From NCBI GenBank assembly GCA_963829245.1, contig CAWHIM010000008.1, forward strand, positions 67,452 through 131,451: a DNA stretch of 64,000 nucleotides, in the 5' to 3' direction. The translations under genes were made by a program, and so were the position numbers. This stretch comes from an uncultured bacterium (GTDB taxonomy: Bacteria > Desulfobacterota > Deferrimicrobia > Deferrimicrobiales > Deferrimicrobiaceae). Every line of letters starts with the position of its first letter. Positions within the stretch are counted from its first letter, which is position 1. A model generated the notes under the pieces. It did no database searches and had not been told where the DNA came from. It was given only the letters and a program-made list of their open reading frames with translations. Positions 23,839-51,815 of the stretch are shown in pieces.

Positions 23839-23862
23839 ATTTCGTTGAATCGAATTTCGTTG

Positions 23863-23890
23863 TTGACTAATATGAGCATATGTTCATAAT
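23863..23890 (+). promoter_or_regulatory. Candidate sigma-70 promoter for the DUF134 / NifX-like pair
   Basis: TTGACT (23863-23868), a 16-nt spacer, then CATAAT (23885-23890), 20 nt upstream of ATG 23911 in an AT-rich divergent gap. The near-palindrome ATGAGCATATGTTCAT (23872-23887) overlaps it. Confidence 0.45.
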
Positions 23891-23910
23891 AATGCCTGCG
23901 AGGGGATGAT

Positions 23911-24345
23911 ATGTCCAGACCACAATGTTGCCGCCGGGTTGCCGGGAGACCGATCGCGTCCGTGTTCCATCCCGCAGGGATTCCGGTCCGCGAGCTGGAC
24001 GAGATCGTCCTCACGCTCGATGAGTTCGAAGCGATCCGGCTGGCCGATCTGGAAGGGCTGTACCAGGAACAGGCCGCGGAGCGGATGATCGTGTCGCGCC
24101 CGACCTTCGGCCGTATCCTGGCGGCCGCCCACCGCAAGGTCGCCGAGGCGCTGGCCCACGGCAAGACCCTCAAGATCGAAGGCGGAACCATCCGGATGGA
24201 ACGGCTGCGTTCCCTCCGTTGCGAGTGTCCCCGGTGCCGTCCCGCGAGCGGCGTGGTCGGCGATGGGGAGAAAACGGAGCCGATGGATGCAAATGCTCCC
24301 CCTTGCCGCCGCATGCGGCGGAGGATGGGATGCAGGAATGACTGA
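23911..24345 (+). CDS. DUF134 (UPF0251) predicted DNA-binding protein
   Basis: FHPAGIPVRELDEIVLTLDEFEAIRLADLEGLYQEQAAERMIVSRPTFGRIL follows the DUF134 consensus. Cys-rich tail. Confidence 0.8.
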   Translation: MSRPQCCRRVAGRPIASVFHPAGIPVRELDEIVLTLDEFEAIRLADLEGLYQEQAAERMIVSRPTFGRILAAAHRKVAEALAHGKTLKIEGGTIRMERLRSLRCECPRCRPASGVVGDGEKTEPMDANAPPCRRMRRRMGCRND

Positions 24346-24390
24346 GCAGGAGTCCCGCAGCGAACCCTCAACCAAGAAGGAGAAAACATC

Positions 24391-24777
24391 ATGAACATCT
24401 GCATCCCCATCACCCAGGACAACGGCATCCGGAGCCCCGTGAGCCTTCACTTCGGTTCGGCGCCGATCTTCATGGTCGTCGACACGGAAAGCGGAACCTG
24501 CCGGGCCATCACGAACGGCAATCTCCACCATGCCCACGGCATGTGCCAGCCGCTCTCGCAACTCGCGGGGGAAAAGCTGGACGCCATGGTGGTCGGAGGA
24601 ATCGGGATGGGCGCCGTCAGCAAATTTAATGCCGCGAACATCCGCGTCTACTTTTCGGAGCACGCGACGGTCGAGGAGACGGTGGCCGCGTTCAAGTCGG
24701 GAACGTTACGGGAAGTGACTCCGGAGATGGCCTGCGCGGGTCACGGCAACGGGCCTCACGGACACGCCGCACATTGA
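24391..24777 (+). CDS. NifB/NifX-family (dinitrogenase FeMo-cofactor biosynthesis domain) protein
   Basis: HFGSAPIFMVVDTESG, HHAHGMC and DAMVVGGIGMGAVSKFNAANIRVY are typical of PF02579 small proteins. Confidence 0.75.
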   Translation: MNICIPITQDNGIRSPVSLHFGSAPIFMVVDTESGTCRAITNGNLHHAHGMCQPLSQLAGEKLDAMVVGGIGMGAVSKFNAANIRVYFSEHATVEETVAAFKSGTLREVTPEMACAGHGNGPHGHAAH

Positions 24778-26676: not shown

Positions 26677-27147
26677 CTACTCGCCGAGAAAAGTCTCCGG
26701 CATCTGGACGGCCACGATTTCTCCTCGTGCGGTGGCCACTCCTTCGGCATATACCGTCGCTTCGACGATGACCTTCCGGCCTTTGATTTCCTTCACCCGT
26801 CCGCGAATCTCCAACTCGCCGCCTAACGGGGTCGGTTTCAGAAAATCCACCTTCAGCGAAGCGGTCACGAAGCGAAAGGGCGGTTCGCTGTCCATCGCGC
26901 GTCCCTCGACGCGGTACATCGCGGCGGCGGCGGTCCCCGTTCCGTGGCAGTCGATCAGCGACGCGATCAATCCGCCGTACACGTAGCCGGGAATGGCCGT
27001 ATGGAACGCCTCGGGACGGAAGCGCGTGACGGTCTCGTCCTCCTCCCAATGCGTTTTTATCCGGTAGCCATGCGCGTTCAAACTCCCGCAGCCGTAGCAA
27101 TGCGCCACGTTGTCGGGGTAGTAATCCTGAAATGCTTTCTCCGTCAT
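26677..27147 (-). CDS. PaaI-family (hotdog-fold) thioesterase
   Basis: ORF 26677-27252 trimmed to ATG 27147 (SD GGAGGA). HCYGCG near the N-terminus, then GYVYGGLIASLIDCHGTG and KVDFLKPTPLGGELEIRGRV. Confidence 0.75.
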   Translation of the reverse strand: MTEKAFQDYYPDNVAHCYGCGSLNAHGYRIKTHWEEDETVTRFRPEAFHTAIPGYVYGGLIASLIDCHGTGTAAAAMYRVEGRAMDSEPPFRFVTASLKVDFLKPTPLGGELEIRGRVKEIKGRKVIVEATVYAEGVATARGEIVAVQMPETFLGE

Positions 27148-27168: not shown

Positions 27169-27201
27169 AAAAAGGGGACTCCCCCGTGGAGGGAGTTCCC
27201 C
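27169..27201 (-). terminator. Rho-independent terminator closing the hdr/qmo-like operon
   Basis: The minus strand reads GGGGAACTCCC-tccac-GGGGGAGTCCCC followed by TTTTT (plus-strand A5 at 27169-27173). It lies 62 nt after the dsrE-like stop. Confidence 0.65.
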
Positions 27202-27262
27202 GTTCCCGTACCGTTTTCGTCCTTTCTCCCGCGGGATCAGGACGGACCCCAAGCCGGGGGCG

Positions 27263-27637
27263 TCAGTAGTTCAGTACGGCCTTCGCCTCGAGGCACTCCT
27301 GGACGACCCGGGCGGCCGCGATCAGCGACGCGCTACCGACCAGCGTCTCCGGGGCGATGTTCCGTCCCTTGATGCAGGGCGTGCAGAGAAGAATCTGCCC
27401 CCCCTGGGCAAAATAACTCGCAATCAGATCCTTCAGTGGAGGGAAACCGATCCCCTGGACGTTCTCGCCTGCTCCCTTCACCGCAAGGGTCACCGCGTTC
27501 CCTTGCAGGATGACGGTGGTCTTGACATCCATGGCCAACGCGGCGTTCGCCACCACGAACGGCAAGGTCGCCCGATCCGGATCCTCCCCGCCGTGTGTGC
27601 CGATGACGACGATCTTCTCCTCTTTTCCTTCCGCCAT
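27263..27637 (-). CDS. DsrE/DsrF-family sulfur-relay protein
   Basis: ORF 27263-27736 trimmed to ATG 27637 (SD AAGGAGGG). IVVIGTHGGEDPDRATLPFVVANAAL and Cys motif LLCTPCIKGR. Confidence 0.7.
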   Translation of the reverse strand: MAEGKEEKIVVIGTHGGEDPDRATLPFVVANAALAMDVKTTVILQGNAVTLAVKGAGENVQGIGFPPLKDLIASYFAQGGQILLCTPCIKGRNIAPETLVGSASLIAAARVVQECLEAKAVLNY

Positions 27638-27701
27638 TTCAACCCTCCTTGTGGAATGTGTGGAACAACGGCATCCGATTCCCCCGGAGCGCGACCAGGC
27701 C

Positions 27702-28835
27702 TCACGCCGCGCGTTCGGTTCCCCGGGCGGCGGCATCCGCCGCCCCTTGCGTCACCGCGGCCAGGTAGGCCGCGAAAGGCCGGTAGAACATGTGCCCCCA
27801 CTTGCCGAAGGGCACCTCCACGACAAGCATCGGGACCACGATGGCCATGTGTACCACATAGGTGGAATACGTCGCGAGCGGAAGGCCCGAGAGACGGAAC
27901 ACGTGGACCAGGATCCCGGTGAGCGCCACCAGGAACAGCAGGACCAGGAACACCCAGTCGGTGGGCTCGGAGAATTTATGGATGTTGTCCCGTTTGCGCA
28001 GTCGGCCCAGGAGGAAGTCTCCGGTCACGTACAGAAGGGCCGCGGTGGCGTAGTACCCCAGCAGGCGGGTGGGGTGATAGAAGGGGACGATCTCATCGGT
28101 CTGGAACCACCGGAGAAACACGATGACGAGGACCATCATCGTGACGTACCCGGTGACCAGCAGGAAATGCTTGAGCCACCGGGTGTTCGGTCCTTCGCAT
28201 TCCCGCCACTTTTTCTGCGTCGCGAAGTGCTCGAAAAACGCGGGCAGCTTGCGCAGGTACAGCGAAAAGGGGACGTCTCCCCCCTTCCCCGCGCCCATCA
28301 CCCAGCGGGACATCCGCCACCCGTTGGAGAGAAGGAGGAAGACCAGGATGCCGCCCATGATCCAGTCGCCGATCTCGACCCATTTCACGGGGGCGAAGGT
28401 GTTGAGCTCCACGTGGTCCGTCACCACGGGACCGTGGAAGAGGGCGAAAAGGGCGACGACGAAAAGACCGACCAGCCCGATCGCCCCGATCTCCCACGCA
28501 GGCGAGGTGTAGAACTTCTTCCCCAGGCCCGTCCAATCGTACATCCCCGTGAGGTACCGGCGTGCCGCCATCATGGTCTCGGCAGGGTTCGCTTCCCGGG
28601 GGCAGGTATCGGAACATTCACCGCAGTAATAGCAGAGCCAAGGTTCGAGAGATCCGGCGAGCTTCCCTCGGTGCCCCACCTGCAGGAGATGGATCATCCG
28701 GCGGGGAAACCCCCCCGCCTCCTGGGACTGGGGGCAGATGGCCGTGCAGTTGCCGCAGTTCATGCACGCCGTGATGTCTCCGCCGCCGAACTTCGCGACA
28801 TCCCTGTACAACCCCGGTGTCACCCGAACGCCCAT
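27702..28835 (-). CDS. QmoC-like subunit: HdrC-type 2x[4Fe-4S] domain fused to an HdrE/NarI-like membrane cytochrome b domain
   Basis: ORF 27702-28907 trimmed to ATG 28835. CMNCGNCTAICP and CYYCGECSDTCP, followed by about six hydrophobic helices bearing conserved-looking His residues. Confidence 0.7.
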   Translation of the reverse strand: MGVRVTPGLYRDVAKFGGGDITACMNCGNCTAICPQSQEAGGFPRRMIHLLQVGHRGKLAGSLEPWLCYYCGECSDTCPREANPAETMMAARRYLTGMYDWTGLGKKFYTSPAWEIGAIGLVGLFVVALFALFHGPVVTDHVELNTFAPVKWVEIGDWIMGGILVFLLLSNGWRMSRWVMGAGKGGDVPFSLYLRKLPAFFEHFATQKKWRECEGPNTRWLKHFLLVTGYVTMMVLVIVFLRWFQTDEIVPFYHPTRLLGYYATAALLYVTGDFLLGRLRKRDNIHKFSEPTDWVFLVLLFLVALTGILVHVFRLSGLPLATYSTYVVHMAIVVPMLVVEVPFGKWGHMFYRPFAAYLAAVTQGAADAAARGTERAA

Positions 28836-28845
28836 CTCCCCCCCT

Positions 28846-29088
28846 CTATGCCTTCGCCAGCTTGTACCGGTAGTAATCGTCCGCCTTTGGTTTCGGGATT
28901 TCCTCAAGGGCGCCGTACCGCCGAAGGGCCATCACCCAGAGCGTCACCTCCCGGGCCGGGCACTGCAGCGCCTCGGCAATCTCCGGGATGGTCCTGGGTT
29001 CCTCGCGAAGAAGAGACGCGATCTTCTCCTTCATGAGCATCTCGTCCCGCATCACCTCGGAAGGATCCCGTCTCCGTTCGGTCCCCAT
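28846..29088 (-). CDS. Small winged-helix-like (FeoC/MarR-like) protein of unknown function
   Basis: 80-aa ORF. SD GGGAGG lies 8 nt upstream of ATG 29088, which shares one base with the upstream TGA (TGATG). IASLLREEPRTIPEIAEALQCPAREVTLWVMALRRYGALEEI looks like a wHTH. Confidence 0.55.
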   Translation of the reverse strand: MGTERRRDPSEVMRDEMLMKEKIASLLREEPRTIPEIAEALQCPAREVTLWVMALRRYGALEEIPKPKADDYYRYKLAKA

Positions 29089-30821
29089 CAGACAGCCTCC
29101 CGGACCAGCGCGTCGATCATCCCCTTCACCTGGGCGTTGGTGTACCCCTCCAGGTCGATCGCCTCAACGGGGCACGCGGGGACGCACCCGCCGCACCCCT
29201 TGCAAAGCGCGGGGTGGACGTAGGCGATCTCCTTCTCCCCCCGGCGCACCTTCTCGACCGCTCCGTCGTAGGGACACGCTTTTTCGCACTCCCCGCACCA
29301 CGTGCACCGTTCCGTGTCGGCCTTCGCGACGAGGGGGGAAAGGTCGACATACCCCTTGAGCAGCAGCGCCGCCCCCTTGGAAACCGCCGCCAGGGAGGAA
29401 GCCACGCTCTCCGCGAGCGTTTTGGGCCCCTGGGCCGCCCCGGAGATGAAGACGCCGTCGATCAGCGTCTCCACGGGACGCAGCTTGGGATGGATCTCGT
29501 TGAAGAACCCTCCCGCGTCGATCGGGAGCTTCAGCACGTTCACGAGGGTCGCGTTCTCCCGGGGCACCATTCCGGTGACGAGGACCACGAGGTCGGCCGG
29601 GATCCCGATCTCCTCGCCGCCGAGAAGGCCGTCCCGGACCCGGACGAGCAATTCGCCGTCCGGCCGCTCCACCACCGGGGGAGCGTCCTCGGCGTACCGG
29701 ACGAAGACGGACCCTTTCCGTCCCGCCTCCTCGAAGAGGATCTCGCTTTTTCCGTAGGTCCGCATGTCGCGGTAGAGGTGATACTGGTTGACGCCGCCAT
29801 CGATCCCGTTGGCCAGGAGGGCGGTGTGGACCGCCGCCGTGCAGCAGTACCGGGAACAGTAGAGGTTCGGGTGGGGGTTCTCCTCCGTGGCCGCCTGGCG
29901 GCTGCCGACGCAGTAGACATAGACGATGTTCCGGACCTCCCGATCCGCGTATCGGAGTTTCCCGTTCGCCCCGGCAACAAGCTCCCGGAACTCCGGCAAC
30001 GTGATGACGCCCGGAAGCCCGTAACCGAATTCGCCCGCCTTCGGGGCATACGGGTCGAACCCCGTGGCGACCACGATGGCCCCGACGTGGAGCGCGATCT
30101 CCTCCGCACCGCGGACGCGGACCTTGACGGAAAAATCCCCGATGCATCCGCTTTTCCCGACCACCTCGGCGCCCGTGAAAAGCGTGATGTTCTCCCTCCG
30201 GCGGATCGCCCGATGCAGGGTGTCGATCATCTCCGCCCCTTCCCGGTCGTTGGGAAACATCTTCCCCCACGCGGGGACCCGTCCACCGACCTCCTCGGCC
30301 CGCTCCACCAGGTACACGGCCATCCCGAGGTCGGCGAGCGCCAGGGCCGCGCGCATTCCCGCGACGCCGGCCCCCACGACCAGCGCCGCGGGGGTCGTCT
30401 CGATCCGGAGGTCGGTCAGCGGCACGCCGAGCCGGGTCCGGGCGATCCCGGCCCGCACGAGGTGGATCGCCTTCCCGGTGGCCTCATCCCGTCCGCGCCG
30501 GTGCGCCCAGGAGCACTGCTCCCGGACATTGACCTGGGTGTACATGTACGGGTTCAACCCGGACCGCTGCGCCATGGCGCGGAAGGTGGTGAGATGCAGC
30601 TTGGGGGAGCAGGATGCGATCACGATGCCGTCGAGCTTCTCCTCCTGGATGGTCCGGATCATCTCCTGCTGGGAGGCCTCCGAGCAGGAGAAGAGGAACG
30701 TCTTGGCCACGGCGACCCCGGATTCCTTCTCCGCCGCGGCGCGGACCTTCTCCTCGTCGACGTAGTCGGAGATGTTCCCGCCGCAGTGGCAGATGAACGC
30801 CCCGATCCGTTTTCCGTTCAT
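29088..30821 (-). CDS. HdrA-like FAD/FeS flavoprotein (QmoA/B-type paralogue 2)
   Basis: IGAFICHCGGNISDYVD N-terminus, FAD site LVVGAGVAGMRAALALADLG, HdrA-specific cluster motif CVGSRQ...CSRYCC, C-terminal 2x CxxCxxCxxxCP. ATGA overlap with the upstream gene. Confidence 0.8.
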   Translation of the reverse strand: MNGKRIGAFICHCGGNISDYVDEEKVRAAAEKESGVAVAKTFLFSCSEASQQEMIRTIQEEKLDGIVIASCSPKLHLTTFRAMAQRSGLNPYMYTQVNVREQCSWAHRRGRDEATGKAIHLVRAGIARTRLGVPLTDLRIETTPAALVVGAGVAGMRAALALADLGMAVYLVERAEEVGGRVPAWGKMFPNDREGAEMIDTLHRAIRRRENITLFTGAEVVGKSGCIGDFSVKVRVRGAEEIALHVGAIVVATGFDPYAPKAGEFGYGLPGVITLPEFRELVAGANGKLRYADREVRNIVYVYCVGSRQAATEENPHPNLYCSRYCCTAAVHTALLANGIDGGVNQYHLYRDMRTYGKSEILFEEAGRKGSVFVRYAEDAPPVVERPDGELLVRVRDGLLGGEEIGIPADLVVLVTGMVPRENATLVNVLKLPIDAGGFFNEIHPKLRPVETLIDGVFISGAAQGPKTLAESVASSLAAVSKGAALLLKGYVDLSPLVAKADTERCTWCGECEKACPYDGAVEKVRRGEKEIAYVHPALCKGCGGCVPACPVEAIDLEGYTNAQVKGMIDALVREAV

Positions 30822-33532
30822 AGCGCCGCCCGCTTTCTCTGGAGAAAGGACGCGACCTGGGTGGCCGCCGCCCCGGAGTGAAGAATCGTGTCGGGGATGT
30901 CGCGGATCGCGGAGGCCGTCCCTGCGACGAACACCCCGTCGATGCTGGTCTTCCCCGGATCGAGGTCCTCGTCGACCTCGCGGACGTACCGGAACGGGTC
31001 CGCCGAAAGCAGGCCCGGAGGGAACATCCCGAACGCCTCGGGGTTGGCGGAGAGGCCCACCGACAGGACGACGAGGTCGTGCTCCGCCGCAAGCGTTCCC
31101 CCGTTTCCTTCGATATCCTCGTACCGCACTACGAGGTTCTCCTCCCCCGTCTCGTCGATCTTCGCCACCTTCCCCTTCACGAAGCGCACGCCCATCCCCT
31201 TGGCCTGCTCATAGAACTCCTCGTACCCTTTCCCGAAGGCCCGGATGTCGATGTAGTAGATGGTGACGTCGGCCAGCGGCAGCGCCCCCATCAGAAGCTG
31301 GGCCTGCTTGATCGAGTACATGCAGCAGACCCGGGAGCAGAGCCGGTTGTCGACGGTGCAGTCGCGGGAGCCGGTGCACAGGACGAAGGCGATGTTCGAC
31401 GGCGCCTTCCCGTCGGAGGGGCGCACGACGGCGTTGAACGGCCGGGTGGGGGCGAGGATCCGGTCCATCTGCATCGCCGTGATCACGTTCGGGTACTCTC
31501 CGAAACCGTATTCGGGCTTCCTCTTCGGGTCGAAGAGCTGAAAGCCCGTGGCGACGAGGATGGTGCCGACCTCGAGCGTTTTCCGTTCCTCCCGCATGTC
31601 GAAGCGGATGGCGCCGGCAGGGCAGGCCGCCACGCATTGGTGGCACTCCGAGCAGATCCCGCAATCCAGGCAGCGGCCGGCGCTGTAACGGGCTTCCTCC
31701 TCGGTCATCGTCTTTTCCACTTCTTCCATCGACCGGGAACGGGCGGCGGCGGGGAGCTCCAGCGGAACGACCGGAACCCGTGCCGACGGCGGCACATCCG
31801 CCCGGTCGAGCACCTCTTTGCCGTCCACCGAGGTGAGGCGGGCATCGAAGGTGATCCCGGACAGCGGGAGCCCCTGCAGGTACCGGTCGATATAGAAGGC
31901 GGCGCGCTTCCCCTGCGCGATCGCCTCGATGATCATGGAGGGGCCGGTCACGTCGTCCCCGCCGGCGAAAACGTTCGGAAGGGAGGTCGCAAGCGTCTCG
32001 GGATCGGCCTGGATCGTCCCGTCCCGGTTCAACCCGAGTTCGTTCGCGAACGGGCGGGTGCTCGGTTTCAGCCCGACGGCAAGCACCGCGATGTCCGCCG
32101 GGAGGGTGACGCCGGACCCCTTCACAGGGACCGGGCGCCGCCGGCCACTGGCGTCGGGTTCCCCCAGCTTCATGGAAAGCCACTCCACCGCGACGAGCTT
32201 CCCGTTCTCCCCGAGGAACCGGTTCGGGGTCCGGAGTTCGTGGAGTTCGACCCCCTCGTCGAGGGCGGACCGGACCTCGAAGTCGTGGGCCGGCATCTCC
32301 GCGCGGCTCCTGCGATAGTAAATGGCCACCGTCCCGGCGCCCATCCGGAGAGCCATCCGCGCCGAGTCGATCGCCACGTTCCCGCCGCCGATGACGGCCA
32401 CCCGCTTCCCCGAGAGGTCCATCTTCCCGCCGGCGTTTCCGATCGCAAGCAGCTCCATCGACTCCAGAACGCCCGGGAGCTCCTGCCCCGGCACCTCCAT
32501 CTCCTGCCCTTCCATCGTGCCCAAGGCGAGGAACGCCGCGTCGAACCCCTCGTCCTTCAGAGAGGCGATGGACACGACGGGTGTGCCGGTCCGGATCTCC
32601 ACCCCCAGGGCGGAGATATTCCGGATGTCCCGGTCCACCAGCTCCTTGGGGAGCCGGAACGGAGGGATGCCGTGACGCAGCATCCCGCCGGCCTCGGGAC
32701 CGGCCTCGAATATCGTAACGCCGTACCCCCTGCGCGCGAGGAAGTACGCGGCGGACAGCCCCGCCGGCCCGGAGCCGGCGACGGCGACCTTTTTCCCGTT
32801 CCGCGCTTCCGGCGGCCCGTACTCGGGCTCGGGGTGCCGCTCGTAGTAGTAATCGACCATGAACCGCTTGATCCCGCGGATGGGCACCTTCCCCTCGACC
32901 TCGTCCCGGGTGCACTGCCCCTCGCAAGGCGCGTAGCACGCGCGGCTCAAGGATCCGGGGAGGGGGGCATCCTCCATGTGCAGGCGGAACGCCTCCTCGT
33001 ACTTGCCGCTGCGGACGAGGGACACATAGCCGTGCGCCTTCACGCCCGCCGGGCAGGTGAAGGTACAGGGGGAGGAGCCGGCCCGATCGATGACCGCCTT
33101 CTTCGGGACCGCCTGTGGGAACGCGATGTGGGCGGCCCGCGTCGCCACCAGGCCGGCGTTGAACTTGTCGGAGATCGCCACCGTACACGCCAGCTCGCAA
33201 TCCCCGCACCCGGTGCACGCCGCGGGGTCCACGAAGGTCGGCTTCTTGAGGAGCCGGACGGCGAATGTGCCGTCGTCCTTACGGACGATCCCCTCCACTT
33301 CACTGTAGGTCAGGACGGTCAGGTTGGGATGATGCGCGGTGGCGGCCATCTTCGGGGTGGAGATGCAACTGGAGCAGTCCAGGGTCGGGAAGACCTTGCT
33401 GAGCAGGATCATCTTCCCGCCGATGGAGACCTCCTTCTCCACGAGAAGCACCTTGTACCCCATGTCGCCAAGCGTCAGGCCGGATTCCATTCCCGCGATT
33501 CCGCCGCCGACGACGAGGACGTCGTAATCCAT
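30818..33532 (-). CDS. HdrA-like flavoprotein with an inserted GltD/NfnB-like NAD(P)H-binding module
   Basis: HdrA N-terminus (VLVVGGGIAGMESG, FPTLDCSSCISTPKM, CTGCGDCELAC). Residues ~155-620 are GltD-like (CPAGVKAHGYVSLVRSGKYEEAF, CYAPCEGQC, VAVAGSGPAGLSAAYFLARRG, VAVIGGGNVAIDSAR, FAGGDDV). Then an HdrA C-terminus (CTGSRD...CSRVCC). Confidence 0.8.
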   Translation of the reverse strand: MDYDVLVVGGGIAGMESGLTLGDMGYKVLLVEKEVSIGGKMILLSKVFPTLDCSSCISTPKMAATAHHPNLTVLTYSEVEGIVRKDDGTFAVRLLKKPTFVDPAACTGCGDCELACTVAISDKFNAGLVATRAAHIAFPQAVPKKAVIDRAGSSPCTFTCPAGVKAHGYVSLVRSGKYEEAFRLHMEDAPLPGSLSRACYAPCEGQCTRDEVEGKVPIRGIKRFMVDYYYERHPEPEYGPPEARNGKKVAVAGSGPAGLSAAYFLARRGYGVTIFEAGPEAGGMLRHGIPPFRLPKELVDRDIRNISALGVEIRTGTPVVSIASLKDEGFDAAFLALGTMEGQEMEVPGQELPGVLESMELLAIGNAGGKMDLSGKRVAVIGGGNVAIDSARMALRMGAGTVAIYYRRSRAEMPAHDFEVRSALDEGVELHELRTPNRFLGENGKLVAVEWLSMKLGEPDASGRRRPVPVKGSGVTLPADIAVLAVGLKPSTRPFANELGLNRDGTIQADPETLATSLPNVFAGGDDVTGPSMIIEAIAQGKRAAFYIDRYLQGLPLSGITFDARLTSVDGKEVLDRADVPPSARVPVVPLELPAAARSRSMEEVEKTMTEEEARYSAGRCLDCGICSECHQCVAACPAGAIRFDMREERKTLEVGTILVATGFQLFDPKRKPEYGFGEYPNVITAMQMDRILAPTRPFNAVVRPSDGKAPSNIAFVLCTGSRDCTVDNRLCSRVCCMYSIKQAQLLMGALPLADVTIYYIDIRAFGKGYEEFYEQAKGMGVRFVKGKVAKIDETGEENLVVRYEDIEGNGGTLAAEHDLVVLSVGLSANPEAFGMFPPGLLSADPFRYVREVDEDLDPGKTSIDGVFVAGTASAIRDIPDTILHSGAAATQVASFLQRKRAAL

Positions 33533-33545
33533 AAGGCCTCCGACT

Positions 33546-33953
33546 TTACAGTTTGCTCAATGCCTCGGTGAATTGCCGCATGTGCGACACGAACGGCTCC
33601 GAGCAGACGGAGCAGATCGCCGCCATCTTCACTCGCCGGGGGTCCTTCCCGCGCTCCTTCAGCATCCCCTGCGCCCTTTCGGCGATCCGGGCGGTCCGGG
33701 TCGTGCAGTCGGGGAGATAGGCACAGTCGCCCCCGTCCGCGGCGATGAAGACCCCGTCGAACCCGGCCTCCAGCGCGTAGAGCACCCAGTTCGGGTTGAT
33801 GCCGCCGGAGCACGGGATGCTGATCACTTTGACGGATGGGGAGTATTCCATGTGCTGACTCCCCGCCAGGTCGATCCCCGGGTCGGAGATGTTGTTCGTG
33901 GAGAAGACCAGGATCTTCGGGCGCCCCTCCCCGGAAGGCGCGACCGTGGCCAT
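33546..33953 (-). CDS. MvhD/FlpD-like protein (methyl-viologen-reducing hydrogenase delta-subunit family)
   Basis: KVISIPCSGGINPNWVLYALEAGFDGVFIAADGGDCAY and a CSVCSE tail follow the FlpD pattern. The usual N-terminal CCxxC block reads STNNISD. Confidence 0.7.
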   Translation of the reverse strand: MATVAPSGEGRPKILVFSTNNISDPGIDLAGSQHMEYSPSVKVISIPCSGGINPNWVLYALEAGFDGVFIAADGGDCAYLPDCTTRTARIAERAQGMLKERGKDPRRVKMAAICSVCSEPFVSHMRQFTEALSKL

Positions 33954-34205
33954 CTATTTCCCCCGCTTCACGAACAGCCGCCAGTAGCCGGCCTCCTCGA
34001 CATTGCCGAGGAAGTCGTGCCCCACCTTCTTCGCCCAGAGGGGGATGTCCTCTTTGGTCCCCTCGTCGGAGGACATCACTTCCAGGACGCCGCCCACCGG
34101 CACCGCCGCGATGGCGCGCTTGGCATCGAGAAGCGGCCCGGGGCATGCCGTCGCCCGGGCGTCGATCGTCTTGTCCACTTTCAGGGTCGATAGATCCAGA
34201 GCCAT
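33954..34205 (-). CDS. tusA: TusA/SirA-family sulfur-carrier protein
   Basis: ORF 33954-34289 trimmed to ATG 34205 (SD GAAGGAGGG). IDARATACPGPLLDAKRAI holds the CPxP active-site motif. The stop abuts the mvhD-like ATG. Confidence 0.8.
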   Translation of the reverse strand: MALDLSTLKVDKTIDARATACPGPLLDAKRAIAAVPVGGVLEVMSSDEGTKEDIPLWAKKVGHDFLGNVEEAGYWRLFVKRGK

Positions 34206-34251
34206 GACGTTCCCTCCTTCTGCTTCGTTCGGAATGGATTCCAACGACCGC

Positions 34252-34599
34252 TTATAAGGCGGCCACCACGTACCGGGGGTCGATCTCAAGTGCGATCTGG
34301 CCGCGTTCCTTCATTTTGTCCAGCAGGACGGACCGGATCAGCGTGCACGCCTCGATGATCCTGCGGTCGGAGAGGCTGTAGTAGACGGTCTGACCATCCT
34401 TCCGGGTCTGCACGAGGCTTTGCGCCTTGAGCAACGACAGGTGCTGGCTCACGTTCGAGAGAGGGACCGAGATCACCTCCGCGATTTCCCCCACGCTCAT
34501 CTCCTTCTTGGCCAGCAGGGCGAGGATCATGAGCCTCTTTGGGTTCGAGAGGGTCTTGCACAGGTCGGCGTGCAACTCGAAAATATCGGTCTTTTCCAT
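34252..34599 (-). CDS. ArsR/SmtB-family transcriptional regulator (two Cys: C14, C85)
   Basis: LCKTLSNPKRLMILALL and MSVGEIAEVISVPLSNVSQHLSLLKAQSLV give the ArsR wHTH core. It is the first gene of the operon. Confidence 0.85.
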   Translation of the reverse strand: MEKTDIFELHADLCKTLSNPKRLMILALLAKKEMSVGEIAEVISVPLSNVSQHLSLLKAQSLVQTRKDGQTVYYSLSDRRIIEACTLIRSVLLDKMKERGQIALEIDPRYVVAAL

Positions 34600-34634
34600 C
34601 CTTCCCTCGTTTCTTTCGTTAATGCGTATATTCG

Positions 34635-34675
34635 TTATTCAATAAGTACGATAGCAACAAATCTTCCGCTGTCAA
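34635..34675 (-). promoter_or_regulatory. Candidate sigma-70 promoter plus palindromic operator for the arsR-led operon
   Basis: On the minus strand: TTGACA (34675-34670), a 16-nt spacer, then TATCGT (34653-34648). The palindrome TTATT-C-AATAA (34635-34645) sits at the predicted transcription start. Confidence 0.4.
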
Positions 34676-34888
34676 TATTTTTTTCCTTTTCGCATCCAGA
34701 GTGCTTTTGTCGGGTCTTTGTACCCGCGGTCCTCCGAAATTGCGCAACGCGTCCGGCGATCGGGAGGGTGAATCGCGAGAGGTCCCACCCGAATCCCATT
34801 CTAGAGTAGGTTCGATGGGGGGAAGGTCCAGGAAGGTTTTCGCTCCAAATCACGAGTTGACCGATCACCGGGAGGCGAGGAGATCGCG

Positions 34889-35440
34889 ATGAAACAGTAC
34901 AAAATAGCCGTTGTCGTCGGCAGTCTTCGTAAAGATTCGTTCAACCGCACGCTCGCAAGCGCCATCGTAAAACTCGCGCCGTCGGACTTCTCGTTCCAAC
35001 AGGTACAAATCGGCGACTTGCCGCTCTACAATCAGGACGACGATGCGGGCCCGGCCGAGTCCGTCACGCGCTTGAAACGCGAAATCACCGCTTCCCAGGG
35101 CCTTCTGTTCGTCACCGCCGAATACAACCGATCGATCCCCGGGGTACTTAAAAACGCGATCGACCACGCCTCGCGCCCTTATGGCCAGAGCGCCTGGGCG
35201 GGCAAACCCGCTGGCGTGATCGGTGTTTCGGTCGGCGCTACCGGCACATCCATGGCGCAACAGCACCTGCGGAATGTTCTTGCGTACCTGGACGTACCGA
35301 CGCTCGGCCAACCCGAAATTTTCCTCCAGATGAAGGACGGGTTGTTCGATGAGTCCGGCGGCATCGGAGCGGCAAGCAAAAAATTCCTGCAAAATTGGAT
35401 GGACCGGTATGTTGCCTGGGTGACGAAGCATGCCGCATGA
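34889..35440 (+). CDS. NADPH-dependent FMN reductase (ChrR/YieF-like)
   Basis: IAVVVGSLRKDSFNR, FVTAEYNRSIPGVLKNAIDHASRP. Confidence 0.85.
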   Translation: MKQYKIAVVVGSLRKDSFNRTLASAIVKLAPSDFSFQQVQIGDLPLYNQDDDAGPAESVTRLKREITASQGLLFVTAEYNRSIPGVLKNAIDHASRPYGQSAWAGKPAGVIGVSVGATGTSMAQQHLRNVLAYLDVPTLGQPEIFLQMKDGLFDESGGIGAASKKFLQNWMDRYVAWVTKHAA

Positions 35441-35457
35441 GGCGGCCGGAGGAAGTG

Positions 35458-35838
35458 CTACAGGATGTACATTATCGTAATTTTTTCTTCGTTGGAAACC
35501 CGGAGTCCGTGATCCGGTCGGCATACCTTTCGTTCTTTCGGAAAATCGGGAATCTTCCGGATCGCAAGGACGAGGATTCCCACCACGGAGATGAATCCGA
35601 GAAGATTGAACGAGGACTCGGCGTTCTCCTTCATCGTTTCGTGCCTGACATCGGTGGCCGGGGAAGGCTTGGGAAGCAGCAAGGTGCCCATCACATACGC
35701 GCCTTGCCATGCTAACCGCTCGGGAGGTATCGAGAATACCACGCAAGCATAAATCACGAGAAGCGCGGCCGCCGCCACGAGTTTTCTAAGAAACTTCTTT
35801 TTCTCGGTATCCTTTCGTGATTCCATGGTCTTCTCCAT
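35458..35838 (-). CDS. Hypothetical small membrane protein
   Basis: Two or three hydrophobic helices (LVAAAALLVIYACVVF, LLGFISVVGILVLAI). ATG 35826 has the better SD (GGAGAAG). AT-richer than its neighbours. No family recognised. Confidence 0.45.
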   Translation of the reverse strand: MEKTMESRKDTEKKKFLRKLVAAAALLVIYACVVFSIPPERLAWQGAYVMGTLLLPKPSPATDVRHETMKENAESSFNLLGFISVVGILVLAIRKIPDFPKERKVCRPDHGLRVSNEEKITIMYIL

Positions 35839-36099
35839 TCGATTCCCGGATCAACCCAGGTCCGTTTCTGTATATAAGATCGCCATCCGGCGAAAAATAT
35901 TCACCGAACCGTACATTTTTTATCATCCGACGGATATCCCTTCGCGAAAATGAAGGGGTTTCAGTGGAACCGGATGAAAATCCATCCCTTTCATGTTTTT
36001 TTGCGTTTCCCGAATCCCGAGGGAGGGTCATCCGAATCCAACTTGCATGCCCTGACTTGCACGCTTGCGAATCACTCCGGGACGGGAGGTCGGATTGCC

Positions 36100-36564
36100 A
36101 TGAAAAAAACAGTCCTGCTAACCTTCTTGATTGCCGGGGGTTTTTTGTGGAACGGATCCGGAATCCACGTACCAACTCCGTTCCCTCCGGAGGGCGGTTC
36201 CGAGGTCATGGCCGCCGACAACCCGGCCCGATTCGTCGAAATACCGACATTCGGGCTCGTCCGGGAAGTGACAGCCTACAACGTGGGAGAGAGGAGGCAG
36301 ACAAACGATAAGCCGTGCCTCGGGGCCACGGGGGAAAACCTCTGCCGCCTCGTCACACGGGGACTCAAGGTTTGCGCCGCGAACTTCGTCGCCCCGGAGA
36401 CGATCCTGAATATCGAAGGGTACGGCGAGTGCATCGTCCTTGATCGCATGAACCGGCGGTTTTCCCATCGCGTCGACATCGCGATGAGGCGGGACGAAAC
36501 CCACAAGGCCCTCGAATTCGGTATCCAGCGGCGGTACGTCGACGTAAAACCCGGACTCCCCTGA
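36100..36564 (+). CDS. 3D-domain (RlpA/MltA-like double-psi beta-barrel) secreted protein
   Basis: ORF 35950-36564 trimmed to ATG 36100. Signal peptide MKKTVLLTFLIAGG. EVTAYNVGERRQT and ECIVLDRMNRRFSHRVDI resemble 3D-domain proteins. Confidence 0.6.
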   Translation: MKKTVLLTFLIAGGFLWNGSGIHVPTPFPPEGGSEVMAADNPARFVEIPTFGLVREVTAYNVGERRQTNDKPCLGATGENLCRLVTRGLKVCAANFVAPETILNIEGYGECIVLDRMNRRFSHRVDIAMRRDETHKALEFGIQRRYVDVKPGLP

Positions 36565-36574
36565 AATCGGATCC

Positions 36575-37333
36575 TCACTGCATCCGCCGGATGCGCACCT
36601 CGGTCTCCTTCTGATTCCGGAGGAGTTCGACGATCCTGGAGGTGTCGGTCTCGCCGAAATGGTAGGGGTAGAGGATCTTCGGCCGGAGCATGCGGGCGGC
36701 CTCGGCCACCATCTCCGGGGTCATCGTGTACGGGAGATTCATCGGAAGGAACGCGATGTCGACCCCGGCGAGGGTCCTCATCTCGGGGATGTTCTCCGTG
36801 TCGCCGGCCACGTACACCCTCTTGTCCCCGAAGGTGAGGACGTACCCGTTGCCGTCCCCTTTGGGGTGAAAGGGTACGCCGGGGCTGCGCTCATGGACAA
36901 GATTGTACGCCGGAACGGCGATCACGCGGATGCCGGGAGAATTCTTCCGGGCGCCGGGGAACACCTTCTGGTCGCCGTTCTTCAGGACCACGGCGCCGGG
37001 AATCTTTTCGGCGGCGGCCGGATTCGCCGCCACAACGGTCCGGGCGCTTCGGATGGCCTTGATCGCCCCCAGGTCGAGATGATCGCTGTGCTCGTGGGTG
37101 ACAAGGATGATGTCGGCCTTCGGGAGGGTTGCATAGTCAGCCACCTTGCTGTAGGGGTCGATGGCGATGGTCGTGCCGTCGAAAGAGAAGAGGAGACTCG
37201 CGTGGCCCAGAAAGGTGATGGTGAGGTCGCCGGAAGCCGTCGGGATCACGTCCGTTTCATACCGCTCTTTCCCGAAAGCCGTTCCCGCCACCAAGGTCAT
37301 CAGAAACAGAAAAACGACATGCAATCCCTTCAT
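36575..37333 (-). CDS. MBL-fold metallo-hydrolase, secreted
   Basis: ORF 36575-37390 trimmed to ATG 37333 (SD GGGAGG). Signal peptide MKGLHVVFLFLMTLVAGTAFG. HxHxDH motif LVTHEHSDHLD. Confidence 0.8.
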   Translation of the reverse strand: MKGLHVVFLFLMTLVAGTAFGKERYETDVIPTASGDLTITFLGHASLLFSFDGTTIAIDPYSKVADYATLPKADIILVTHEHSDHLDLGAIKAIRSARTVVAANPAAAEKIPGAVVLKNGDQKVFPGARKNSPGIRVIAVPAYNLVHERSPGVPFHPKGDGNGYVLTFGDKRVYVAGDTENIPEMRTLAGVDIAFLPMNLPYTMTPEMVAEAARMLRPKILYPYHFGETDTSRIVELLRNQKETEVRIRRMQ

Positions 37334-41763: not shown

Positions 41764-43111
41764 ATGACGGAACTCGACCTGGCACGCGCGCAGATGGCGA
41801 TGCTGTTCGCCTTCCACATTCTCTTTGCGGTGGCCGGGATAGGTATGCCCGTACTCATGGTGATCGCCGAGAGGGCGCATCTTCGGACCGGGCATCCCGT
41901 CTATGCGGATCTCGCGCGGCGCTGGGCGAAGGGGATGTCGGTCCTCTTCGCGATGGGCGCGGTCACCGGAACCGTCCTGTCCTTCGAGCTGGGGCTGTTG
42001 TGGCCCAGGTTCATGGCGTTCGCCGGCGGAGTCATCGGGCTTCCTTTCGCTCTGGAGGGATTCGCCTTCTTCACCGAGGCGATCTTCCTCGGTATCTACG
42101 TGTACGGCTGGGACCGCGTCTCGCCGCGCCTCCACCTCGCCTCCGGTGTTCTCGTGGCCATCGGTGGGATCCTCTCCGGGATCTTCGTCGTTACCGCCAA
42201 CGCATGGATGAACAGTCCGGCGGGCTTCACCCTTGTGGACGGGAGGCCTGTCGACGTATCCCCCCTCGCGGCGATGCTGAACCCGGCCTCGGTCACCGAG
42301 ACGATCCACATGACCCTCGCCGCCTTCGCCGCCTCCGGGTTCGCGGTCGCGGGGATCCATGCGTACCATCTTCTGAGGGACCGGGAGAACTTATTCCATC
42401 GGAAAGCACTGGAAATCGCCCTCGCGGTCGGTTGTGCGGCCGCCGTGCTCCAGCCGATCAGCGGCGACATGAACGCGCGCTTCGTCGCGCGGGACCAGCC
42501 GGTGAAACTCGCGGCGCTGGAGGGGCAGTTCGAGACCGAACGCGGGGCGCCGCTTCGGATCGGGGGAATCCCCGACGTCGCATCGCGGACCACGCGGTAC
42601 GCGATCGAGGTACCGAAAGGATTGAGCCTGCTGGCCTACCACGATCCCGACGCCCGGGTGCGGGGACTCGCCGCATTCCCCCGGGACGAGTGGCCCGACC
42701 CCGTCCCGGTGCACCTCGCCTTCCAGGCGATGGTGGCCGGCGGCATAGCCATGGCTCTCCTCTCCATCGCCGCGGCCTGGCTTTTCTGGAAGAAAAGGGA
42801 GGGCTCTCTTCGGCCGCCGGTTCCTGACGGCCGTCGCCCTCTGCGGACCGGTCGGACTCCTCTGCGTGGAGGCGGGGTGGGGAGTCACCGAAATGGGCCG
42901 GCAGCCCTGGGCGATCCGCGGCGTCATGAGGACGGCGGAGGCGGTGACCCCCGTCGGAGGCCTTCTCCTCCCCTTCGCATTCTTCTCGCTTCTCTACCTG
43001 GGCCTCGGGGCGGCCACAGTCTGGCTGCTGCGGCGCGAAGTCGCCGCGAGCCCCTTCTTCCCCGCCGGCGGCGATGTGGCGGGTCCCTCCGCCCCTGAAG
43101 GGAAGGAGTAG
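41764..43111 (+). pseudogene. cydA: Cytochrome bd ubiquinol oxidase subunit I, one frame disruption near 42793-42799
   Basis: ORF 41764-43098 is CydA-like as far as AWLFWKK. The C-terminus (VEAGWGVTEMGRQPWAIRGVMRTAEAVTP) continues in ORF 42866-43111, one frame over. The junction is at the AAAAGGG run. Confidence 0.8.
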
Positions 43112-43114
43112 GCC

Positions 43115-44139
43115 ATGCCGGATACCGCAACGCTGTCGGCCGGATGCATCCTGGCATCCCTCGTTCTCTACGCCCTCTTCGGGGGGGCCGATTTCGGGGG
43201 AGGCTTCTGGGACCTTCTGGCGCGTGGTCCACGCGCGGCAGATCGGCGGCGGCTCATCGCCAAGGCCATCGGCCCCGTGTGGGAGACCAACCATATATGG
43301 ATCATCGTGGCCATCGTGATCCTCTTCACGGCGTTTCCCGTGGCGTTCGCGGTCGTCTGCACGACCCTTTTTATCCCGCTGACGATCGTTCTCGCCGGGA
43401 TCGTCCTCCGCGGGGCGGCGTTCGCATTCCACGCATACCGCCTCCATGAGAAGCCGTACGGCGGGACGGTGGGGGGTCGTCTTCGCCTCGGCCAGCCTCG
43501 TCACACCGGTCTTCCTCGGGGTCGTGTTCGGGGCGATCTCCACCGGGAGGATACGCGTGACGGACCGGTTGGCGTTCACGGGAGACGTGACGTCGTGGCT
43601 CTCCCCTTTCCCTGTCTCCGTCGGGTTCCTCGCGCTGGCCTCCTTTGCCTTCCTCGCCGCCGTCGTACCTCATCCTCGAAACGAACGACCCGGGGCTGCG
43701 GGAGGAGATCCGCCGGGACGCCTTCCGGTCCGCCGCCGCGCTCGTTCTCGTCTCCGGGCTGACCCTGGCGTCGGCCGCCCTCGATGCGAAGGAGTTCTTC
43801 CGGGCCCTCACGGGTAGACCCTGGTCGATGCCGCTTGTCGCAGCGGAGATCGCGGCCGCCGCAGGGGCGGCCGCCTCTCTCGCGCTTCGCCGCTACCCGC
43901 TCGCGCGCGGCTGCGCCGCCGCGCAGGTATCCCTCCTCCTGGCCGGCTGGGGCATGGCCCAGTACCCGTATCTCGTACGTCCGGACGTCACCGTGTTTTC
44001 CGCGGCCGCATCTCCCGAGACGCTGCGCCTCCTGCTCGGCGCGCTTGCCGCGGGAGCCGTCCTCCTTTTCCCGGCGATCTTCCTTCTCCTCCGGGTGTTC
44101 AAGTGGGAGGCGATCTCCGGAACTCCCCCCCGCCCATGA
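43115..44139 (+). pseudogene. cydB: Cytochrome bd ubiquinol oxidase subunit II, two frame disruptions (~43463 and ~43665)
   Basis: The protein runs through three ORFs in successive frames (43115-, 43446-, 43645-44139): FGGADFGGGFWDL...HAYR / RWGVVFASASLVTPVFLG...FLAAV / YLILETNDPGLREE...LLRVFKWE. Confidence 0.75.
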
Positions 44140-50977: not shown

Positions 50978-51815
50978 CTAAAACCTCCCCGTCAGGCCGT
51001 TGTAGATGAGTTCCACTCCGAGCGCCAGAATGACCAGGCTGAAGACGATGCGCAGGATCCGGGACTTGGCGCGGGCCAATACCTTTGCCCCCAGCGTGGA
51101 TCCCGCGAGCACCCCCAGCATGACCGGCATCGCCAGGACCGGGTCGATGTATCCGCGGCTCAGGTAGACTCCGGCGCTGGCGGCTGCCGTCACGCCGATC
51201 ATGAAGTTGCTGGTGGTCGTCGAAACCTTGAACGGAATGCGCATGACCTGGTCCATGGCGAGCACCTTGACGGCCCCCGACCCGATCCCGAGCAAGCCGG
51301 AGAGCGCTCCGGCGACGAACATCAGACCGAATCCGCCAGGGACATTGCGCACGCGGTAGGACTGCGGACCATCGGACGTCGGGTAGGTCGAATCCATCCT
51401 CAGGAAGGTTGCCAAAGGGTCGGGGCGGGTCGGCGGAAGGATGTTCCGGCCGGGAGCGGTTCGACAGGTACGCCGAGTAGAAGAGGACGACCCCGAAGAT
51501 GACCGCAATTGCGGAAGTGGACATCCTGGCGGCCAGGAAAGCCCCGGCCAAGGCCCCGATGGTTGTCGCGATCTCCAGGAACATCCCGATCCGGAGGTTG
51601 GAGTATCCTTCCTTGACGTAGGCCGCCGCGGCTCCGGAAGAGGTGGCGATGACCGAGACGAGCGAGGCGCCGATGGCATACCGGATGTCGACCCCGAACA
51701 CTAAAGCGAGGAGAGGCACGATGACGACACCGCCCCCCAGTCCCGTCAGGGAACCGAGGAATCCCGCCGCCACGCCCCCCAGACAGACAAGGAGCGAGAA
51801 TTCCAGGGAGTTCAT
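50978..51815 (-). pseudogene. TauE/SafE-family sulfite/anion exporter, one frame disruption near 51395-51445
   Basis: ORF 50928-51815 is TauE-like as far as LFYSAYLSNRSRPE. The remainder (DPLATFLRMDS...GALSGLLGIGSGAVKV...LGVELIYNG) continues in ORF 50978-51679. Confidence 0.75.

Follow-up and report, generated by a model that had tools for sequence, protein, structure and literature searches.

A cross-phylum gene module joining an asymmetric HdrA pair and a QmoC-like or HdrCB subunit to TusA and DsrE sulfur carriers, in an uncultured Deferrimicrobiaceae bacterium

We analysed a 64,000-nucleotide (nt) stretch of DNA from an uncultured Deferrimicrobiaceae bacterium (GenBank assembly GCA_963829245.1, contig CAWHIM010000008.1, positions 67,452 to 131,451), hereafter the window, and within it a run of eight genes that encode two HdrA-type flavoproteins, an MvhD-type subunit, a QmoC-like membrane subunit, two sulfur-carrier proteins, a small winged helix-turn-helix (wHTH) protein and an ArsR-type regulator. 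A check of the open reading frames (ORFs) of the window found all eight on the minus strand, with the coordinates and junctions that a preliminary description of this DNA had first given for them (Table 1). The genes form a real, self-contained operon for a predicted, uncharacterised flavin/iron-sulfur electron-transfer complex. The gene order is more than a chance arrangement, as it recurs in ~65 independent loci distributed over many phyla.

Table 1 Genes and signals of the operon, in the direction of transcription (positions in the window)
Feature	Position	Strand	Basis
Sigma-70-type promoter candidate (TTGACA-16-TATCGT, TG before the -10 element)	34648..34675	-	Signal scan
Palindrome TTATTGAATAA (TTATT-G-AATAA), candidate ArsR operator	34635..34645	-	Read from the sequence
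ArsR/SmtB-family regulator, 115 amino acids (aa)	34252..34599	-	HTH_5 and NF033788 profile matches
TusA sulfur-carrier protein, 83 aa, CPGP motif	33954..34205	-	Pfam TusA, 78.6 bits (cut-off 28.6 bits)
MvhD/FlpD-type [2Fe-2S] electron-transfer subunit, 135 aa	33546..33953	-	Pfam FlpD, 106.6 bits
HdrL, 904 aa, HdrA core with GltD/NfnB-type FAD/NADPH insert	30818..33532	-	Profile and Protein Data Bank (PDB) alignments
HdrA paralogue, 577 aa	29088..30821	-	HdrA2 model, 450 bits
Minimal winged-helix protein, 80 aa	28846..29088	-	AlphaFold2 (predicted local distance difference test (pLDDT) 83.6); Foldseek
QmoC-like protein, 377 aa, HdrC-type 2x[4Fe-4S] domain and six-helix membrane domain	27702..28835	-	NF038018
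DsrE-family sulfur-carrier protein, 124 aa	27263..27637	-	Pfam DsrE, 56.8 bits (cut-off 22.7 bits)
Intrinsic terminator, G+C-rich hairpin GGGGAACUCCCUCCACGGGGGAGUCCCC followed by U5	27169..27201	-	Signal scan

The tusA stop codon directly abuts the mvhD ATG (33954/33953), hdrL and hdrA overlap by 4 nt (30818-30821), base 29088 is common to hdrA and the wHTH gene, and the other intergenic gaps within the operon measure 10-64 nt. A signal scan recovered both of the borders proposed in the preliminary description, a promoter upstream of arsR and a hairpin with a T5 tract after dsrE. The promoter candidate agrees with the consensus at 10 of 12 positions. The region holds 2 promoter-like sites where 1.3 are expected, and thus shows no enrichment, but identical promoter hexamers lie 5' of arsR in close relatives (loci L001, L005, L013, L021 and L062). 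The hotdog thioesterase gene 3' of the operon most likely starts at 27147, past the terminator. Profile searches agreed with the initial calls of ArsR, TusA, MvhD, DsrE and both HdrA proteins, including the GltD-type insert in one of the latter.

For both HdrA proteins, matches to HdrA models and to chains of HdrA in the PDB reach E <1e-80, and nearly every Cys in the two paralogues is invariant among 52-59 orthologues. In the longer one, referred to here as HdrL, the NAD(P)H-type module is evident from a 500-bit match to PRK12771 over residues 140-643, and HdrA matches occupy residues 2-140 and 621-899. Residues 2-140 correspond to residues 151-288 of methanogen HdrA, a stretch that takes in the flavin adenine dinucleotide (FAD) core and the leading half of the inserted ferredoxin domain; residues 622-894 correspond to HdrA residues 296-569. 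Because the alignments to HdrA flank the insert on both sides, the GltD module lies inside the inserted ferredoxin domain. The first stretch includes the canonical FPTLDCSxCI, the second Cys of which is marked X in PDB 9sfi. HdrL is without the HdrA N-terminal domain and without the C-terminal ferredoxin domain; 20 of its 22 Cys, including C53 and C56 of the HdrA DCxxC motif, are invariant in all 59 orthologues. The second Rossmann motif of HdrL reads GGGNVA and is followed by YYRRS, which, by the GxGxxG/GxGxxA rule applied earlier to the nucleotide preference of archaeal HdrA proteins with a GltD insert (PMC12054007), points to a preference for reduced nicotinamide adenine dinucleotide phosphate (NADPH).

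The second HdrA aligns over residues 4-237 and 239-575 with residues 7-241 and 322-655 of HdrA. Its FAD core is preceded by an N-terminal Cys-cluster domain and followed by a C-terminal 2x[4Fe-4S] ferredoxin domain; the inserted ferredoxin domain and the DCxxC motif are both missing. The CxGxRD...CSxxCC [4Fe-4S] motif is found in both proteins (C719, C732, C736 and C737 of HdrL; C304, C322, C326 and C327 of the second HdrA), with C736 of HdrL kept in 52 of 59 sequences and the remaining motif Cys of both proteins invariant. HdrL thus contributes a core, a split inserted-ferredoxin domain and DCxxC, and the second HdrA contributes the N-terminal domain and the C-terminal ferredoxin domain: judged by their predicted domain content, the two are complementary halves of the methanogen HdrA homodimer.

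Conserved Cys residues also mark the smaller subunits. All 74 TusA sequences share the active-site Cys21 within CPGP, and the Cys85-x-x-Cys88 pair of the DsrE-family protein, whose nearest PDB relative is 3mc3, is kept in 30 of 34 (Cys85) and 29 of 34 (Cys88). All 73 MvhD sequences retain Cys48 and Cys77; Cys83, Cys114 and Cys117 are present in 63-64 of them.

The membrane subunit aligns with the qmoC model NF038018 over model positions 6-357 of 360 (E 7e-53). It had been described as a fusion of an HdrC-type domain to a membrane domain, and it does match HdrC and QmoC, so that the refuting outcome named beforehand, a subunit unlike HdrC/HdrE, did not occur. Its eight cluster Cys are kept in 22 of 22 sequences, and His134, His223, His329 and His348 in at least 20 of 22. 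Cys213 (window 28197-28199), which lies outside the Fe-S motifs in a predicted cytoplasmic loop just ahead of the helix with His223, is likewise invariant (22/22). PDB relatives cover the HdrC part only. In an AlphaFold2 model (pLDDT 80) the four His sit at predicted membrane-helix ends on alternating sides of the membrane, a placement that fits two haems b.

Between the second hdrA and qmoC lies the gene for the 80-aa protein, and the AlphaFold2 model upheld its initial description as a winged helix. Pfam gave sub-threshold matches only, with no match to DsrD, and a sequence search of the PDB returned nothing significant. With Foldseek, the best PDB matches of the model were SmtB/ArsR, Zalpha and DsrD folds; because these are generic winged-helix matches, no specific function can be assigned from them. 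The protein resembles DsrD in being a minimal winged helix of similar size encoded amid redox-enzyme genes, and PDB 1wq2 superposes on the model with a target-normalised template modelling (TM) score of 0.74 and a root-mean-square deviation of 2.2 A, but no sequence similarity to DsrD was detected. As ArsR/SmtB and Zalpha folds score at least equally, the DsrD resemblance is one of fold only. The single Cys of the protein is not conserved, and a DsrC-like role was rejected because the protein has no conserved Cys. The gene stands between hdrA and qmoC/hdrC wherever the region was recovered (54 orthologues aligned), and the family comprises 288 representatives at 50% identity among 1.84 billion proteins; relatives are labelled 'hypothetical' in the source records. 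The protein is probably a subunit or adaptor of the complex.

The regulator at the head of the operon is nearest to NolR, HlyU, Rv0081, SqrR and BigR. Cys14 and Cys85 are kept in 21-22 of 27 cluster-linked orthologues. At the alpha2 position where BigR, SqrR and HlyU carry Cys, this ArsR has Ala (ILALL versus ILCML in HlyU), and the BigR model scores 61 bits against a cut-off of 155 bits; identity as a BigR/SqrR-type persulfide sensor was rejected on the missing alpha2 Cys. A palindrome that starts 3 nt 3' of the -10 element is a candidate ArsR operator, and palindromes of different sequence occupy the same position in other lineages.

We then asked how widely this arrangement occurs. HdrL has hundreds of full-length relatives, and a scan of species-representative genomes with it returned at least 557 coding stretches. 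The nearest loci among the matches listed belong to Candidatus Deferrimicrobiaceae/Deferrimicrobium metagenome-assembled genomes (MAGs; phylum Candidatus Deferrimicrobiota) at 92-95% identity. A synteny survey, in which the window proteins were compared by tblastn with 79 fetched loci, found the tusA-mvhD-hdrL-hdrA-wHTH core together, in the same order and on the same strand, in ~65 of the 79, from more than 12 phyla. The hosts include Gemmatimonadota, Acidobacteriota, Alphaproteobacteria, Planctomycetales, Myxococcales, Armatimonadota, Ignavibacteriales, Chloroflexota, Actinomycetota, Dormibacterota, Verrucomicrobia, Zixibacteria, Krumholzibacteria, Coatesbacteria and FCPU426. One cultured carrier is Desulfofundulus thermobenzoicus DSM 14055 (L020). 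A separate HdrC-HdrL-MvhD family without TusA, wHTH or a second HdrA, at 43-47% identity, accounts for loci L066-L079 and is hosted by Actinomycetes, Anaerolineae and Dehalococcoidales.

The position 3' of the wHTH gene is occupied in two ways. QmoC fills it in 21 loci, including the window's lineage, and HdrC plus an HdrB-like protein fill it in 33. The latter, sister version consists of a 100-aa HdrC-like ferredoxin and an HdrB-like protein of ~320 aa (for example L020:7144-8418; also L012, L039 and L050). In this HdrB-like protein a single CCG motif is intact, C-terminal and of the form CX34CCX33CXXC in 32 of 32 sequences; its N-terminal CCG domain has lost all Cys. Most relatives thus carry HdrC and an HdrB-like CCG protein where the window locus has QmoC, which makes the latter locus the membrane-bound counterpart of a soluble complex of the HdrABC type. 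The two versions coexist in one Verrucomicrobia MAG (L038 and L043) and stand adjacent and convergent at L054:44-13359, which suggests that they are not redundant.

The sulfur-carrier genes travel with the core. In almost all loci tusA is joined to mvhD, and nearly all loci with recovered flanks have a DsrE or DsrE2 (DrsE_2) gene up- or downstream, often with a second TusA; this conserved linkage agrees with the sulfur-carrier relay of the preliminary description, and the carriers belong to the module and are not chance neighbours. Clustering of flanking ORFs identified ArsR (25 loci), CsoR-type proteins (5 loci) and sigma-54/PAS activators (~10 loci) as recurrent regulators and linked rhodanese in ~7 loci, with no other recurrent neighbour beyond the module genes. 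A CsoR-family repressor (Trns_repr_metal) replaces ArsR at L020:1170-1514 (minus strand), L025, L039, L046 and L050.

No aprBA, sat or dsr gene recurs within 10 kb of 66 related loci, so that orthologous clusters do not regularly lie beside aprBA. For the window itself, Pfam was run on ~40 larger flanking ORFs, a few smaller ones being left out, and none of these is an apr, sat, dsr, hdrB, lbpA or rhodanese gene, in keeping with the preliminary description. Its further statement that the complex has no HdrB/C partner holds at the window locus but not for most relatives, as the soluble version makes clear. The sHdr genes hdrB1, hdrC1, hdrB2, hdrC2 and lbpA are absent from the scanned window ORFs and from the conserved neighbourhood.

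Comparison with close relatives showed the module to be a discrete unit. Nucleotide identity of 89-93% spans ~34693-34707 to ~27174-27257, that is, promoter to terminator, and the flanks differ between genomes (window versus L001, L005, L036, L062 and L002). On a 940-kb Gemmatimonadales contig the module is 76% identical in nucleotides and 81% in amino acids, which argues for transfer between phyla. G+C content at third codon positions (GC3) is 0.84-0.90 for most operon genes, compared with 0.65-0.82 for their neighbours. Given that homology ends at the operon borders, that flanks differ, that a Gemmatimonadales copy exists and that GC3 is higher, the module looks horizontally mobile.

Among the closest described systems, QmoABC, the quinone-interacting membrane-bound oxidoreductase of sulfate reducers and Chlorobi, has a similar overall plan, as had been proposed: the operon supplies two HdrA-type flavoproteins, an MvhD-type module in the larger assembly and a QmoC-like subunit in which an HdrC-like 2x[4Fe-4S] domain is fused to a membrane domain, here predicted to be of the haem-b type, and with which the qmoC model aligns end to end. 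The operon departs from QmoABC in lacking aprBA/sat neighbours, in the scanned window as in the 66 loci; in having mvhD as a separate gene upstream of hdrL and not fused to QmoB; in a 577-aa HdrA that ends in a ferredoxin domain; in the GltD/NADPH module of one HdrA; in having the wHTH gene, tusA and dsrE as integral members; and in the low score of its QmoC. Qmo occurs in alternative forms, QmoABC and QmoAB-HdrBC, and a 'type II' Qmo, found with or without Apr and Dsr, has been called functionally unresolved (PMC10504309).

The HdrA/GltD fusion also has precedents. HdrA with a GltD insert has already been named HdrL (PMC2702500, PMC5947623) or 'type III HdrA' (PMC12054007), and HdrL, a fusion of HdrA with the glutamate synthase small subunit, adjoins and is typically paired with mvhD (PMC2702500, PMC5947623, PMC12054007). 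The HdrL-MvhD modules of Desulfobacterium autotrophicum and Syntrophobacter fumaroxidans and the archaeal 'type III HdrA' share this fusion beside mvhD with the window locus; they differ in being soluble and linked to dsrABC, hdrABC or fdh genes, whereas here mvhD lies upstream of hdrL and a second HdrA, wHTH, QmoC and TusA/DsrE are added. MvhADG-HdrABC and related bifurcating Hdr complexes (PDB 5odc, 8rvu, 7bkb and 9sfi) share the FAD core and CxGSR(D/Q)...CSxxCC of both HdrA proteins, the DCxxC of HdrL, MvhD and the HdrC-type domain. Unlike them, the window operon encodes no hydrogenase or formate dehydrogenase: one HdrA contains the GltD-type donor module as a fusion, two complementary paralogues divide the work of HdrA between them and, at this locus, a membrane quinone module replaces HdrB. 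HdrL-MvhD modules and 'type II Qmo' are therefore already known, and we found no earlier account of the whole cluster tusA-mvhD-hdrL-hdrA-wHTH-qmoC/hdrCB-dsrE in the literature searched; an earlier mention is possible. The preliminary description had recognised no described system in this gene set, which stands for the cluster as a whole but not for its HdrA-GltD fusion.

A further comparison concerns sHdr systems, whose clusters have the gene set dsrE3-tusA-hdrC1B1A-hyp-hdrC2B2-lbpA. TusA and DsrE-family carriers linked to hdrA-like genes, and an ArsR-type regulator, are common to both. The window operon differs in having no HdrB1/B2/C1/C2 and no LbpA, in HdrA proteins of the Fe-S-rich methanogen type and in its GltD module and QmoC.

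We put at about even the chance that the operon specifies a Qmo-like, membrane-anchored, NADPH-dependent Hdr-type complex, probably flavin-based bifurcating, that acts with TusA/DsrE-bound sulfane sulfur. The analysis shows the gene and domain content, the cofactor motifs, the synteny across phyla, the two alternative terminal modules and the lack of Apr/Sat/Dsr neighbours; how the proteins assemble, which way electrons flow, whether they are bifurcated and what happens to sulfur we infer along the following lines. The core would be the asymmetric HdrL/HdrA pair with MvhD and the small winged-helix subunit, and these four proteins would make up a soluble head that docks on the QmoC-like subunit, which would anchor the complex through its 2x[4Fe-4S] domain and predicted di-haem b membrane domain. 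The GltD/NfnB module within HdrL would serve as the NADPH port, QmoC as the port to the menaquinone pool and, in the second HdrA, the ferredoxin domain at the C terminus as the ferredoxin port. An HdrA flavin would bifurcate electrons from NADPH to quinone at high potential and ferredoxin at low potential, or confurcate them in reverse. In the soluble sister version, a disulfide-/persulfide-reducing site of HdrCB would replace quinone, with an HdrB-bound disulfide or persulfide as the high-potential acceptor. TusA and DsrE would most likely present protein-bound sulfane sulfur, as persulfide or polysulfide, for reduction or some other turnover by the complex; they appear to be no bystanders, because they are too tightly conserved in both versions. 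ArsR and CsoR families both include persulfide sensors, and the two-Cys ArsR (or CsoR) repressor probably ties expression to thiol or sulfane-sulfur status.

Several observations weigh against this reading. The main difficulty lies in the QmoC version, in which none of the subunits has a recognised disulfide-/persulfide-reducing site, a CCG domain being absent. The QmoC-like protein scores 180 bits, below the 300-bit equivalog cut-off of NF038018. Its membrane domain matches Pfam Nitrate_red_gam only weakly (E 0.041) and Foldseek matched the HdrC part of the model alone, with NarI at rank 48 (TM 0.36), matches too weak for a NarI-type fold to be used; because that fold is left unconfirmed by Pfam and Foldseek, the predicted haem binding rests on the four conserved His. 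Against persulfide sensing by ArsR stands the absence of the alpha2 Cys of BigR/SqrR. The wHTH protein could alternatively be a DNA-binding regulator and not a subunit.

A more far-reaching form of the proposal, which we consider unlikely, is that the module is an unrecognised class of flavin-based bifurcating enzyme. Persulfide or polysulfide borne by TusA/DsrE would be a redox substrate whose turnover is coupled to NADPH and ferredoxin, and with QmoC also to the quinone pool. The module would then be a widespread, horizontally mobile means of oxygen-independent, energy-conserving sulfane-sulfur turnover, with the wHTH protein as a DsrD-like, non-DNA-binding subunit or activator. Sulfur may instead be no substrate at all. 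An NADPH:quinone/ferredoxin bifurcating enzyme with the energetic logic of FixABCX would account for the three plausible redox ports and the lack of a CCG site in the QmoC version, and for the fact that HdrCB and QmoC are exchanged with the rest of the module unaltered; TusA and DsrE would then act in maturation, sulfur supply or regulation. Set against this are the joining of tusA to mvhD almost everywhere, the presence of a DsrE-family gene with both versions across phyla and the retention of the catalytic Cys of both carriers, a strictness unusual for accessory genes, and we rate the explanation as improbable. Somewhat lower, and distinctly improbable, is operation in the oxidative direction, with thiol or persulfide sulfur on TusA/DsrE oxidised and electrons bifurcated downhill to menaquinone and uphill to NADP+/ferredoxin. 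The parts list would be identical, our own estimate makes the reaction thermodynamically conceivable, rhodanese is linked in some loci and, if true, the arrangement would let sulfide supply reducing power with no need for reverse electron flow. However, there is no recognisable catalytic site for sulfur oxidation, the LbpA and HdrB1/B2 set of sHdr systems is absent from the scanned window ORFs and related loci, and most host lineages of the module are not known as sulfur oxidisers.

The two remaining explanations assign the operon to a known system. That it is itself an sHdr-type sulfur-oxidising system is very unlikely and contradicted by gene content: the adjacency of TusA/DsrE-family genes to hdrA-like genes and the ArsR-type regulator are as in sHdr clusters, but hdrB1/C1/B2/C2 and lbpA are missing from the scanned window ORFs, both HdrA proteins have extra Fe-S domains and one a GltD module, and the PDB sHdrA-type chain 6tjr matches far worse than methanogen HdrA. 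Least probable of all, and largely refuted, is an ordinary QmoABC serving adenosine 5'-phosphosulfate (APS) reductase that has been displaced from aprBA. Two HdrA-like proteins with QmoC would be the expected architecture, but aprBA, sat and dsr are found neither next to the 66 loci nor among the scanned ORFs of the window, the QmoC score falls under the equivalog cut-off, the GltD insert, separate MvhD, wHTH gene and tusA/dsrE are not Qmo features, and hosts of the module include Gemmatimonadota, Chloroflexota, Actinomycetota and Dormibacterota.

The wider window has a different character. Scanned flanking ORFs encode housekeeping or unrelated functions, among them 2-oxoacid:ferredoxin oxidoreductase, malic enzyme, crotonase, a universal stress protein, thioesterase, flavin mononucleotide (FMN) reductase, a metallo-beta-lactamase-fold protein, cytochrome bd oxidase, transketolase, phosphoglucose isomerase and resistance-nodulation-division (RND) efflux proteins. 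No tRNA gene or Rfam family was found in the window. Subunits I and II of the cytochrome bd oxidase are encoded at 41764-43762, 7 kb from the operon, and indicate a quinol-oxidising branch in the organism. A TauE/SafE (sulfite exporter family) membrane protein ORF at 50978-51679 (minus strand) is the sole other match to a sulfur-associated family in the window. At 23911-24777 (plus strand), 2.4 kb downstream of the operon, lies a pair of genes for a DUF134 protein and a Nitro_FeMo-Co-domain protein; the latter recurs near the module in four other loci (for example L030:22140-22562), and in L062 DNA homologous to the pair (window 23851-24767) adjoins the operon. Immediately 5' of the operon, 34600-36600 is lower in G+C (0.56). 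This stretch holds a divergent gene for an NADPH-dependent FMN reductase (34889-35440), an ORF without a Pfam match (35950-36564) and another outside the Pfam scan (35458-35838).

Hdr/Qmo complexes are central to anaerobic energy conservation, and few of their partner combinations have been characterised so far. The preliminary description proved accurate, and its reading plausible though not complete. What is mainly added here is that the locus represents one form of a conserved, apparently mobile module that crosses phyla, comes in two interchangeable forms and has an uncharacterised wHTH protein as a constant member. Its combination of an NADPH-type input, an asymmetric HdrA pair, a quinone or HdrB-type module and a TusA/DsrE relay is unusual. 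The module occurs in soil, peat and sediment lineages such as Gemmatimonadota, Acidobacteriota, Chloroflexota, Actinomycetota, Dormibacterota and Verrucomicrobiota, which are not known for dissimilatory sulfur metabolism. With its soluble and its membrane version, the module offers a natural experiment on which acceptor is exchangeable, and the cultured carrier Desulfofundulus thermobenzoicus DSM 14055 makes the question directly testable. If the complex does act on sulfane sulfur, it would tie sulfur trafficking in the cytoplasm to the respiratory chain and to the ferredoxin and pyridine-nucleotide pools by a widespread and so far unrecognised route.

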